From: a virus
Lineage: Duplodnaviria > Heunggongvirae > Uroviricota > Caudoviricetes
Strand: one strand, 5' to 3'
IMG/VR virus record: IMGVR_UViG_2778261228_000002
Span: 1 to 14,128 of that record
Length of the DNA: 14,128 bases
In this document: positions 9,001-14,128 of the stretch, in pieces
Position numbering within the stretch: the stretch's first letter is position 1
Layout of the letters: each line of letters opens with the position of its first letter
Position numbers: made by a program

Positions 9001-12000
9001 CCCGCCTTCTCTCCAGTAACGATTAATGAGAAAAGAATGAAATGCTTTTCCTGGGGAGGAGGGCAGTAGAAAAAAGAACCCGCCAGCAAAAATATGGGGG
9101 ATGAACAGCTTTTGCTACTCAGGTTGCTGGCGGGTATGGTTCTTCATGAAATAAGAATGTTACGCGGTATTTTTAATGAAAATGATAATTATTGTCAATT
9201 GGTTGTGCGTATTTTTTCATACATGACTGGTAAAGGTGATTCAGGCCATCAGAGTTTTGCTGATGGCCTTTTTTCTTTCCGGTAGCACAGGTCTGTTGGG
9301 GCGGGATATGTATCAGATGGAAAAAATATCAACAGGCATTGCCTACGGCACCTCCGCAGGCAGTGCTGGCTACTGGTTTTTACAATGGCTTGATCAGGTT
9401 AGTCCGTCTCAGTGGGCTGCGATTGGTGTACTGGGAAGTCTGGTTCTGGGCTTTCTGACTTATCTGACGAATCTGTACTTCAAAATCAGAGAAGACAGAA
9501 GAAAGGCTGCGAGAGGAGAGTAATATAATGGTCCAAAACTATGAAATGATTGTGAAAGGGATCCGCAATTTTGAGAATAAAGTTACGGTAACTTTAGCAT
9601 TACAGGACAAAGAACGCTTTGACGGTGAAATTTTTGACCTGGACATCTCGCTGGACCGTGTTGAAGGTGCCGCGCTGGAGTTTTATGAGGCAGCAGCCAG
9701 AAGGAGCATCAGACAGGTCTTCCTGGATGTTGCTGCCGGGTTATGTGGAGGGGATGAGCAGTCGCCGGAAAAGCGCCCCATAATTTTAGAGGCGCAGAGT
9801 GTGTGGATAACCTACAAAGGAAAACTGCCGGGAAGAATTACTGGTTCACTGAAGACTCCGCCGAAATGGTAATTTCACCAGCATATTTTTCCTCCAGTAA
9901 TACCGCCAGCCACTTGAAAGAATTTTGTTGTTGCTGGGACCATTTGGGATTGATTGATTCAAGCTGGAGCGATGCCAGTGTTGGTTGCATTTGTTCCTTG
10001 GGAATTGAGAATGCCAGATATGAAAATGCGACAGTAAGGGCATTTACATCATCCCGAAGCCTGGAAATGCAGTCGAGCAACTCCTGTAGAGAAATGGTGC
10101 TATTGTCCATAAACAATCCTCTCTATTGTATTTAACTATTCCTTGCCTGATTCAACAGGCCGGGACAGATAAACATATCCAGGGTTCAGAAACCGATAAA
10201 TCCTGATAAATATCCATGAACGCAAAAATCAGATACGGCCTGTCGGCTGCCGTTCTGGCACTGATTGCCGTCGGTGCGCCTGCGCCTGATATTCTCGACC
10301 AGTTTCTGGATGAAAAAGAAGGTAACCACACAACGGCATACCGCGATGGTTCCGGCATCTGGACCATCTGTCGGGGTGCCACGGTGGTGGATGGAAAACC
10401 CGTTGTTCCCGGTATGAAACTGTCGAAGGAAAAATGCGACCAGGTTAACGCCATTGAACGGGATAAGGCGCTGGCATGGGTGGAGCGCAATATTAAAGTG
10501 CCACTGACCGAACCACAGAAAGCGGGTATCGCGTCATTTTGTCCCTATAACATTGGCCCCGGTAAGTGTTTCCCGTCGACGTTTTATAAGCGGCTGAATG
10601 CCGGTGATCGTAAAGGTGCATGCGAGGCGATTCGCTGGTGGATAAAAGATGGTGGGCGCGATTGCCGCATACGTTCAAATAACTGCTATGGACAGGTTAT
10701 TCGTCGTGACCAGGAAAGCGCATTAGCCTGTTGGGGGATAGATCAGTGAGCAGAGTCGCCGCGATTATTTATGCTCTGGTTATCTGCATCATCGTCTGCC
10801 TGTCATGGGCTGTTAATCATTACCGTGATAACGCAATCGCCTACAAAGCCCTGCGCGACAAAAATGCCAGAGAACTGAAGCTGGCGAACGCGGCAATTAC
10901 TGACATGCAGATGCGTCAGCGTGATGTTGCTGCGCTCGATGCAAAATACACGAAGGAGTTAGCTGATGCGAAAGCTGAAAATGATGCTCTGCGTGATGAT
11001 GTTGCCGCTGGTCGTCGTCGGTTGCACATCAAAGCAGTCTGTCAGTCAGTGCGTGAAGCCACCACCGCCTCCGGCGTGGATAATGCAGCCTCCCCCCGAC
11101 TGGCAGACACCGCTGAACGGGATTATTTCACCCTCAGAGAGAGGCTGATCACTATGCAAAAACAACTGGAAGGAACCCAGAAGTATATTAATGAGCAGTG
11201 CAGATAGAGTTGCTCATATCGATGGGCAACTCATGCAATTATTTTGAGCAATACACCCGCGCTTCCAGCGGAGTATAAATGCCAAAAGTGATGAAACCGA
11301 GCAATCCATTTACGAATGTTTGCTGGGTTTCTGTTTTAACCACATTTTCTGCACCACCACAAATTTTTGCTGCATCGACAGTTTTCTTCTGCCCAATTCC
11401 CGAAACGAAGAAATGATGGGTGATGGTTTCCTTTGGTGTTACTGCTGTCGGTTTGTTTCCAACAGTAAACGTCTGTTGAGCACATCCTGTAATAAGCATT
11501 GCCAGAGCGGCAGAAAACAACATTTTTTTCATCTTATTATCCTGCATTGTTAAAAACGGCAGAATCCTATGTGACAACAATTAAACGATAGTTAAATGGA
11601 TTGATGAAAATTAAAACTACACAGGTGAGCTCAGACGATTGGAGGGAGTTGGGGACACTCAGAATCCTGTAGAATGAAATAAACCGGTCTATCCGTCCAT
11701 TACCCTTTTATGGGCCGCAGTGCGGCGAACAACATCACGCAGTCCGGCGGCACGGAGTGGAGCAAGCGTGACAAGTCCACGTATGACCCGACCGACGATA
11801 TCGAAGCCTACGCGCTGAACGCCAGCGGCGTGGTGAATATCATCGTGTTTGACCCGAAAGGCTGGGCGCTGTTCCGTTCCTTCAAAGCCGTCAGGGAGAA
11901 GCTGGATACCCGTCGCGGCTCTCATTCCGAACTGGAGACAGCGGTAAGAGACCTGGGCAAAGCGGTGTCTTATAAGGGAATGTATGGCGATGTGGCCATC

Positions 12001-14128
12001 GTCGTGTATTCCGGACAGTACGTGGAAAACGGCGTCAAAAAGAACTTCCTGCCGGACAACACGATGGTGCTGGGTAACACTCATGCACGCGGTCTGCGCA
12101 CCTATGGCTGTATTCAGGATGCGGATGCATTGAGTGAGGGTATTAATGCGTCTCCCCGTTATCCGAAAAACTGGAAGACATCCGGCGATCCGGCGCGAGA
12201 GTTCACCATGATTCAGTCAGCACCGCTGATGCTGCTGGCTGATCCTGATGAGTTCGTGTCCGTTCAACTGGCGTAATCATGGCCCTTAGGGGCCATTTTC
12301 TCTCTGTGGAGGAGTCCATGACGAAAGATGAACTGATTGCCCGTCTCCGGTCGCTGGGTGAGCAACTGAACCGTGATGTCAGCCTGACGGGGACGAAAGA
12401 AGAACTGGCGCTCCGTGTGGCAGAGCTGGAAGAGGAGCTTGATGACACGGATGACGGAGCCGGTCAGGACTCGTCTGTCAGCCCGGAAAATGCGCTGACC
12501 GGACATGAAAATGAGGTGGTATCAGCACAGACGGATACCGTGACTGATACGGCTGCTCTGGTCACGGTTGTGGCACTGGTGACGCTGCATACCGATGCAC
12601 TTCACGCCACGCGGGATGAACCTGTGGCATTTGTGCTGCCGGGAACGGCGTTTCGTGTCTCTGCCGGTGTGGCAGCCGAAATGACAGAGCGCGGCCTGGC
12701 CAGAATGCAATAACGGGAGGCGCTGTGGCTGATTTCGATAACCTGTTCGATGCTGCCATTGTCCGCGCCGATGAAACGATACGCGGGTAACCATGATAAA
12801 TCCATGCGCCTGGGTTTAACCGGATCAACATGGGGGTGTTACAGCGACACACAAAAAAAATGGATACCGCTTGATGTTTCTCATGGTGGCACTGGCGCAA
12901 ATAGCCTTGATGACGCCAAAACTAATTTGCAAATCCCTGAGGGTGGATTAACAAAAGCGATGACCCTTAATGCCCCTGGTGGTGCAGTGGATGGCAAATA
13001 CTACCCTGTCATAATAGACACATCTGCAATGAATGGGAGCGGTGCCATGTTATGTCCTGTTGAAATAAAAACAGCAGGAGGTCCGGCATCAAATCCGCTT
13101 AATAGTAACTCATTTTTTGGGTTCATTCGATGTGGTGGCTGGAGTGACGTTCGCGATGTGGCTTACGGGTCATTTGTTTGCTATGAAAAAAATGAACTCG
13201 GGATACTTTGCATTAAAGCGTCGCAAAGAGATTATGCGCAGCATGTAGCTTTCTACATCCATAAAAGCGCTTTTCCTGTCGTTGTGCAAACTGGCTACAA
13301 GGCGAAAGTTAAGGTTCCAACAGAAGACTACGTAATTGGTGACAACGGGGTTAGATATAAGTTTGGTGTATCAACGTCAACGGAGGATAACGACAAGAAC
13401 TTTGTTAAAAATGTTCTTGACTTCACTGGCGGTGAACATGGCTTCTACAGCAACCTTCCGTTCAGACAAGGGGTGTCAGAAAGGATTGCATTAACAAATG
13501 GCCTGAGTTTTGACAAAAATTTTACCGTCACTATTCCTATATTTGTAAACAATGGTCAGATTAAAGCAACACAATCTTTCACCGCGTACGGTACAGACGC
13601 TTCAAACAGAACATTTGTTTCTCAAAGATTACAATCCGAAGGAGGTCCGGTTGTCGATCAAACTGAACTAAGGGCCGCTAACGCTTCTGGTGAAATTATT
13701 GTCAGGGACATAAATAATTCAGGGAACAGTAAGTTCTTTAATTTTAACCTTGATGGTACCTTCAGTTCTTACCAGGGATTGGTTGTTCACACAGGGCAAA
13801 ACTGGAGCACTCAACATACAGATAATGTAAATAAGTTTAAGCCAATAGCAGGGAGCGCAGGCGGTCCTGACGGAACAATGGTTGTTGGCGGATTCCATGC
13901 TCAATTTAGCGGTAATTACGTCACACAATTCGCCGGTCGCAACTCCAAATTTTGGGCAAGAAGCTTTGAGGCTGGGGTTGATAAGGGATGGAAACGACTA
14001 TTAACAGTAGACGATCTCAATTCATCTACCGATCTTGCTGTCAGGTCATTAACCACATCTAACCCGGTAAAATCTGGCGGAGGGCGAATTGATGTCCTTG
14101 GAAGCACGTCAGACTATAGCAAAATGGA

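Follow-up and report, generated by a model that had tools for sequence, protein, structure and literature searches.

A remnant of a lambda-type morphogenesis module, probably left by two illegitimate deletions, in an iss-carrying Escherichia coli prophage

The window analyzed here, meaning the whole 14,128-nt stretch held in IMG/VR record IMGVR_UViG_2778261228_000002, corresponds to the entire GenBank contig NKVA01000041.1 (GCA_002534895.1, 14,128 bp) and spans a lambdoid prophage from just right of its repressor gene to a point inside its side tail fibre gene (stf). Its nearest complete relatives are the iss prophages at the argU/DLP12 site of the avian pathogenic Escherichia coli (APEC) O78:H4 strains E19057 and E123, the pig strain EC130, and strain APEC O78, which are ~100% identical to the window in regulation, lysis, iss, and stf. 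Over 1-3822, 3817-11710, and 12788-14128, approximately 13 kb in common, the window differs from E19057 by a single base, while identity to EC130 is 100% across 11709-12496 (E-FI) and 12788-14128 (stf). The segment of interest, 11581-14128, lies beside iss, and the features found from iss to the end of the window are listed below, with a slash marking the breakpoint in each parental sequence.

11239-11532, minus strand: iss/bor lipoprotein gene, 97 aa, intact (Pfam Lambda_Bor, E 6e-31; annotated as iss in 100%-identical relatives)
11533-11708, no strand: native DNA upstream of iss, kept up to the deletion; 100% identical to and collinear with E19057 and EC130 up to 11710
11709-11710, no strand: junction 1, between iss-side parent CCCTTTTA/GCTG and capsid gene E GGTGGATA/TGGG, with only TA in common
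11710-12276, plus strand: E', 188 aa, the 3' 55% of major capsid gene E, equal to lambda E residues 154-341 (177/188 identical)
12279-12305, plus strand: native E-FI intergenic hairpin followed by a T-run, terminator-like by pattern match only
12318-12713, plus strand: FI, DNA-packaging chaperone gene, 131 aa, intact (Pfam Packaging_FI, E 8e-51, full length)
12725-12790, plus strand: FII', GTG start, 21 codons (12725-12787) followed by a TAA made by the joint; 20/21 residues identical to lambda FII
12788-12789, no strand: junction 2, between FII CGCGGGTA/CATGGG and stf codons 461/462 TTATATA/ACCATG, with only TA in common
12750-14128, plus strand: chimeric open reading frame (ORF) with a 13-residue leader, MLPLSAPMKRYAG, from the +1 frame of FII', in frame with stf codons 462 onwards and open at the contig end

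Alignment of the window to phage lambda with blastn placed both breakpoints exactly, as 11709-12789 matched lambda 6593-7676 at 94.0% identity and no further lambda alignment was found within 11001-14128. A previous examination of the DNA by itself (the sequence-only reading) had noted that homology to E begins abruptly near 11705; the jump into E is indeed abrupt, and its exact position is 11709/11710. At junction 1, the internal Met154 of E is connected to DNA lying 177 bp ahead of the iss start codon. In E19057 and EC130, the same iss-upstream DNA runs on into a TonB-family ORF, a small ORF, cos, and Nu1. E' therefore starts at a native internal Met codon, is 100% identical to the corresponding part of EC130 E, has no Shine-Dalgarno sequence ahead of it, and covers positions 147-328 of the 329-position Pfam Phage_cap_E profile, such that a full-length capsid protein is absent.

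FI and FII follow E in the order of lambda and are collinear with it, and comparison with the lambda E-FI-FII region (NC_001416 6135-7965) gave 177/188, 117/132, and 20/21 identical residues for E', FI, and FII', respectively, with the difference that the window keeps only E codon 154 to FII codon 21. FI has its own ribosome-binding site, GGAGGAG, and the identical FI protein sequence occurs within the intact head modules of thousands of assemblies. The description of this part as an intact FI followed by 21 codons of FII was thus accurate to the codon. The terminator-like hairpin at 12279-12305 overlaps an alternative upstream ATG (12279) of the FI frame.

Junction 2 connects FII codon 21/22 to codon 462 of the 1200-codon side tail fibre gene, and the TAA formed by the fusion ends FII'. 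From 12789 to the end of the window, the retained portion (stf') is 100% identical to EC130 stf from codon 462 onwards and shows 99.8% identity to its counterpart, the side tail fibre gene, in phage mEp460; unlike the head genes, it has no blastn match to lambda, and is mEp460-like rather than lambda stf-like. The native start and first 461 codons, including the N-terminal tail-attachment domain (PF08400), have been deleted, as expected from the earlier description of a start-less tail-fibre fragment, but the fragment is not devoid of potential starts. Its frame extends back to 12714 without a stop and includes the ATGs 12750 and 12771, both in the +1 frame of FII', as well as a native stf Met at 12804, 14 nt past the FII' stop. 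Gene calls on the record place the start of the chimeric ORF at 12750. None of these three codons is preceded by a Shine-Dalgarno sequence, and translation of stf' is therefore doubtful on sequence grounds.

The fate of this ORF beyond the contig can be deduced from sibling alleles, as stf is cut off by the contig end. L005 (GCA_903977045.1, 1-11174), a longer sibling contig, carries argU-prophage-type Rz, iss, E', FI, FII', and stf'; its counterpart of the chimeric ORF has 799 aa and ends in a Peptidase_S74 domain. By analogy, the complete chimeric ORF of the window would be 752 aa in length and carry the S74 intramolecular-chaperone domain at its end; the window portion itself has no Pfam match, with the S74 region lying past the contig end and found only in L005. 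In the window, the fusion itself supplies the tail-fibre ORF with in-frame ATGs. A protein search with the chimeric ORF found no cluster representative carrying the MLPLSAPMKRYAG leader, where representatives mask the N-termini of their members. A 753-aa cluster member considered as another FII' fusion proved to differ and represents a separate truncation.

Truncated or fused stf ORFs that retain the S74 C-terminus were observed in many E. coli genomes (our entries P0055, P0081, P0027-P0040, and P0126), among them fusions of the Lom signal peptide or of Rz to stf, a 709-aa form starting MRIMSNAKG, and a 753-aa form starting MDRLDQW. The 3' portions of tail-fibre genes seem often to outlast prophage decay.

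What the deletions contained was read from strains in which this phage is still intact, namely GF47, HN68, and FCI1 (98-99% identity) and the more distant STLEFF_29. In these the order is iss, TonB-family ORF, small ORF, Nu1, A, W, B, C, D, E, FI, FII, Z, U, V, G, T, H, which in STLEFF_29 runs on past H to M, L, K, I, J, lom, and stf. On the scale of GF47 and HN68, deletion 1 removed 7,985 bp comprising the TonB-like ORF, the small ORF, cos, Nu1, A, W, B, C/Nu3, D, and E codons 1-153. Deletion 2, ~13.4 kb on the scale of STLEFF_29, removed everything from FII codon 22 through Z, U, V, G, T, H, M, L, K, I, J, and lom to stf codon 461. Between iss and stf' there are no terminase, portal, protease/scaffold, decoration, tail tube, tape measure, or tip genes. 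Q, holin, endolysin, Rz, and iss are all intact. Both joints are flanked on either side by collinear, 100% identical DNA from E19057 and EC130, and at neither is there an insertion sequence (IS) element or terminal repeat, the parental sequences simply abutting with a 2-bp overlap. IS-mediated adjacent deletion would place such an element or repeat at the joint. The sequence-only reading had described two deletion junctions, the loss of terminase, portal, protease, tail tube, and tape-measure genes, and the retention of regulatory, lysis, and moron genes, all of which is borne out here.

We propose that an iss-carrying lambdoid prophage with a lambda-type morphogenesis module would have suffered two illegitimate deletions, with a 2-bp TA overlap at each joint, and that FI would have been left whole between a stub of the capsid gene and 21 codons of FII, followed by a tail-fibre gene lacking its tail-attachment N-terminus. 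It is highly probable that 11581-14128 is such a remnant, unable to form or package particles alone. As the element possesses a 188-residue capsid stub and no packaging or tail genes, its gene content predicts that it makes no particles by itself, in agreement with the earlier expectation. The remnants would be non-functional leftovers, still transcribed from the Q-dependent late promoter. Lambdoid prophages, DLP12, Rac, and Qin among them, are well known to decay by deletion, and the K-12 cryptic lambdoid prophages DLP12, Rac, Qin, and e14 likewise keep Q, lysis genes, and bor beside truncated packaging or tail-fibre remnants. In DLP12 these remnants are nohD, aaaD, and tfaD, in place of the E', FI, FII', and stf' of the window. 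The nearest relatives of the window use the same argU site as DLP12, with intD, adjoining ompT/envY/nfrA. In contrast to DLP12-type prophages, the decay in the window is very recent, as intact siblings at 98-100% identity still exist.

Related prophages have been dismantled in other ways. E19057 carries the scars B'/U and V'/stf, and E123 carries the same two together with a ymfL deletion. EC130 has lost lysis-gene DNA, acquired an IS66 insertion, and bears Nu1'/C' and FI'/lom' joints. In APEC O78 (L029, NC_020163) there has been an internal inversion with loss of DNA, whose joints at L029 9001-9010 and 22219-22222 connect lom' to a helix-turn-helix ORF of the replication genes (overlap CGG[G/C]TATCGC) and the end of Nu1 to yfdP (overlap TAAC). 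The window lineage has, in addition to junctions 1 and 2, a 757-bp deletion relative to E19057 and EC130, which creates the following feature.

3611-4054, strand not given: RusA'-'KilA-N in-frame fusion, 147-aa ORF, with the joint at 3817/3818

This fusion links RusA codons 1 to ~70 to the C-terminus of a KilA-N-domain protein, is common to the sibling allele L003, and has as its joint product CGGATATCCG, a perfect palindrome. As the DNA common to these strains is nearly free of substitutions yet each strain is differently scarred, the module is undergoing rapid, recent, ongoing, and parallel deletional decay in sister strains. The idea of a domesticated cryptic prophage retained for its cargo does not fare well against this background: with one base of difference from E19057 in ~13 kb and scars that differ by strain, there is no sign of long retention.

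The breakpoint in FII is used repeatedly. The exact 188-aa E' product was found on 12 contigs, 11 of which, from ~10 samples, contain junction 1, and every contig with junction 1 breaks FII at the same place. Four right-hand partners were identified: stf codon 462 in the window and L007, stf codon 415 in L005 (joint at 1687), stf codon 284 in L008 (joint at 1653), and J codon 101 in L003 (joint at 11080), L009, and L010. All four joints are in frame with the ATG at 12750 and its leader. The V'/stf deletion of E19057, an independent event, has the same stf-284 site (ATGCGGATA/AC) as its right end. These reused FII and stf-284 breakpoints are unlike random independent deletions, and the simplest picture is of a fixed DNA end rejoined repeatedly by microhomology. 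Deletions that have one end fixed, join at microhomology, and retain no IS are known to arise with the help of the IS-excision enhancer (IEE; PMC9943667), which would match the repeated use of the FII site. None of the 12 contigs has an IS at FII codon 21, no IS-bearing ancestor was found, and IS target duplications in the prophage family lack the GG(N)TA motif described below. Scans of IMG/VR for non-native sequence past the FII site returned only a synonymous native allele. A hairpin or replication pause as the cause of the FII hot spot found no support, as its 5-bp stem folds no better than shuffled sequence (z = -0.16). L006 was considered as a second use of the E breakpoint and proved to be an unrelated Nu1'/E deletion, 14 nt upstream.

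All 18 resolvable rearrangement joints, 11 from the argU iss-prophage family and 7 from elsewhere, were aligned and scored for a GG(N)TA motif, defined as GG.?TA at the joint in one or both parents. They include window positions 3817-3818, 11709-11710, and 12788-12789, and joints in L001, L002, L027, L028, L029, and L034. This revealed the motif at 11/11 family joints, with TA usually being the common bases, versus two of the seven joints elsewhere (Fisher's test P = 0.0025). The five misses are two joints from PK8566, two from the att-lambda prophage of E19057, and L006. The ymfL deletion joint of E123 (AGACCGGATA/TCT), which was inspected once the motif had already been defined, carries it. 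In simulations holding microhomology length, ~1.4 of 18 joints would be expected to contain the motif, compared to the 13 observed, and the best of 256 comparable patterns reached at most 10/18 in 3,000 simulations (family-wise P below 1/3000). At the joints only TA is common, with GG(N)TA, and sometimes TA(N)CC, as flanks, and two joint products, CGGATATCCG and CGGGTACCCG, are perfect 10-bp palindromes.

Several points weigh against the reconstruction given above. Neither joint occurs in 5,426 complete E. coli genomes, support coming from draft and Logan assemblies only. The contig begins just right of the repressor gene and stops within stf, leaving the prophage ends and the integration site outside it, and, while the 100%-identical relatives lie at argU, the sibling allele L005 adjoins ybhB-bioA, so that its right side is the att-lambda/bio region and not ompT; the chromosomal context of the window lineage may thus be rearranged. 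The absence of both joints from complete genomes, and from IMG/VR, JGI metagenomes, and GTDB representative genomes in exact-pattern scans, together with the presence of several lambdoid prophages with near-identical head genes in E. coli genomes, would fit a chimeric assembly or the import of the 1,081-bp E'-FI-FII' block from another prophage. A de Bruijn or k-mer misjoin is, however, impossible from a 2-bp overlap, and the same joints are found in separate NCBI and Logan assemblies: both occur in Logan assembly SRR3988185, possibly from the same isolate as GCA_002534895.1, two samples contain the window contig, and the recurrence of junction 1 in several independent assemblies indicates that it is no artefact joining unrelated contigs. 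The E-FI block is moreover 100% identical to the EC130 prophage at the same locus and L003 lom is 100% identical to EC130 lom', which fits a single ancestral prophage, and the contig is unbranched through three allele-specific joints, from which we infer that there was no variant copy in that genome. A chimera or import is on this evidence scarcely credible. Were the remnants instead kept because they are useful, whether as an FII'-stf' fusion protein, as an intact FI, or as a stf 3' part on which incoming phages could draw by recombination, one would expect the pattern seen in the four FII' fusion alleles, all of which hold J or stf in frame with an ATG (probability ~1/27 under independent random events), as well as the intact FI with its good ribosome-binding site and the commonness in E. 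coli of truncated or fused S74-bearing stf ORFs (the Lom-stf, Rz-stf, and 709-aa forms). Yet the ATGs at 12750 and 12771 lack Shine-Dalgarno sequences, the in-frame outcome in two alleles is due in part to codon-phased GCG-containing microhomology, the tail-attachment domain has been lost and there is no tail to attach to, and sister strains have lost FI or truncated stf differently. Purifying selection is also not demonstrable at near-zero divergence, as essentially no substitutions separate the relatives on which selection could be tested. We consider retention for usefulness quite improbable.

Decay of the module by deletion, as set out above, leaves the question of whether the deletions themselves were directed. 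A sequence-directed break-and-join at GG(N)TA with exchange at TA, in which the FII codon 21 hot spot was used at least four times and decay is non-random, would account for an FII breakpoint that is identical in four alleles with J codon 101 and stf codons 284, 415, and 462 as in-frame partners, for the second use of the stf-284 site in E19057, for the enrichment of the motif in the family, including the E123 joint, and for the palindromic joint products. Against it, the motif, window, and pattern family were all chosen after viewing the data, 4/5 of the joints examined prospectively lack the motif (these misses being outside the family), no enzyme could be matched to the GG(N)TA joints, and the scans of IMG/VR found no non-native FII joint. 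Directed breakage in this general sense is possible, if short of probable. Other sources of the motif were explored. An IS target preference found no support, as all four target duplications of IS66 and IS2 in the family lack it. Gyrase or topoisomerase IV cleavage was rejected, with only GGR at -4 to -2 matching and the 12-bp dyad geometry misfitting (PMC2094056, PMC6379681). An inverted-repeat search found no hix-like or invertase-type sites near the Pin-like recombinase of E19057, and the Rpn nuclease paper reports no cleavage preference. The more specific proposal, that structural-gene loss in the APEC O78-type iss prophage is driven by sequence-preferring GG(N)TA breakage and rejoining, with FII codon 21 (CGCGGGTA/C) as a hot spot joined independently in each case, is tentative and, because of the post hoc choice of motif, window, and pattern family and the prospective misses, rather unlikely. 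If true, prophage decay here would be directed and lineage-specific instead of the product of random illegitimate recombination, and, should the GG(N)TA/TA rule and FII reuse hold, a specific enzyme or DNA-end process would operate in a clinically relevant iss-carrying APEC lineage. As first described, the window was one more defective lambdoid prophage that changes nothing. A single prophage with nearly no point differences and at least 11 scars across sister strains provides a clean record of the speed of dismantling and of its joints.

The end of the contig at 14128 is probably a repeat-induced assembly break, as related genomes carry a second stf in a separate att-lambda prophage. In E19057, this second stf matches the final 340 bp of the window at ~80% identity and stays similar to L005 further on. 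Comparison with L002 and L027 showed that L005 crosses over homologously within the 3' end of stf into the right end of the att-lambda prophage, which in L005 consists of an AraC gene, IS fragments, and ybhB-bioA. The argU and att-lambda prophages of E19057 lie ~257 kb apart in the same orientation, and the hybrid structure of L005 therefore implies gene conversion or a large rearrangement.

Elsewhere in the window, three genes lie between Q and the lysis genes, and a second methyltransferase is present further to the left.

5461-6480, minus strand: type II DNA methyltransferase (PADLOC MTase_II, E 5e-151)
6776-7003, plus strand: small ORF
7123-8214, plus strand: divergent 339-aa ORF
2605-3291: second methyltransferase, Dam-type

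Sequence searches of Pfam, PADLOC, and PDB gave no match for the 339-aa ORF beside the type II methyltransferase, and the methyltransferase and this ORF may together form a prophage-borne restriction-modification system.

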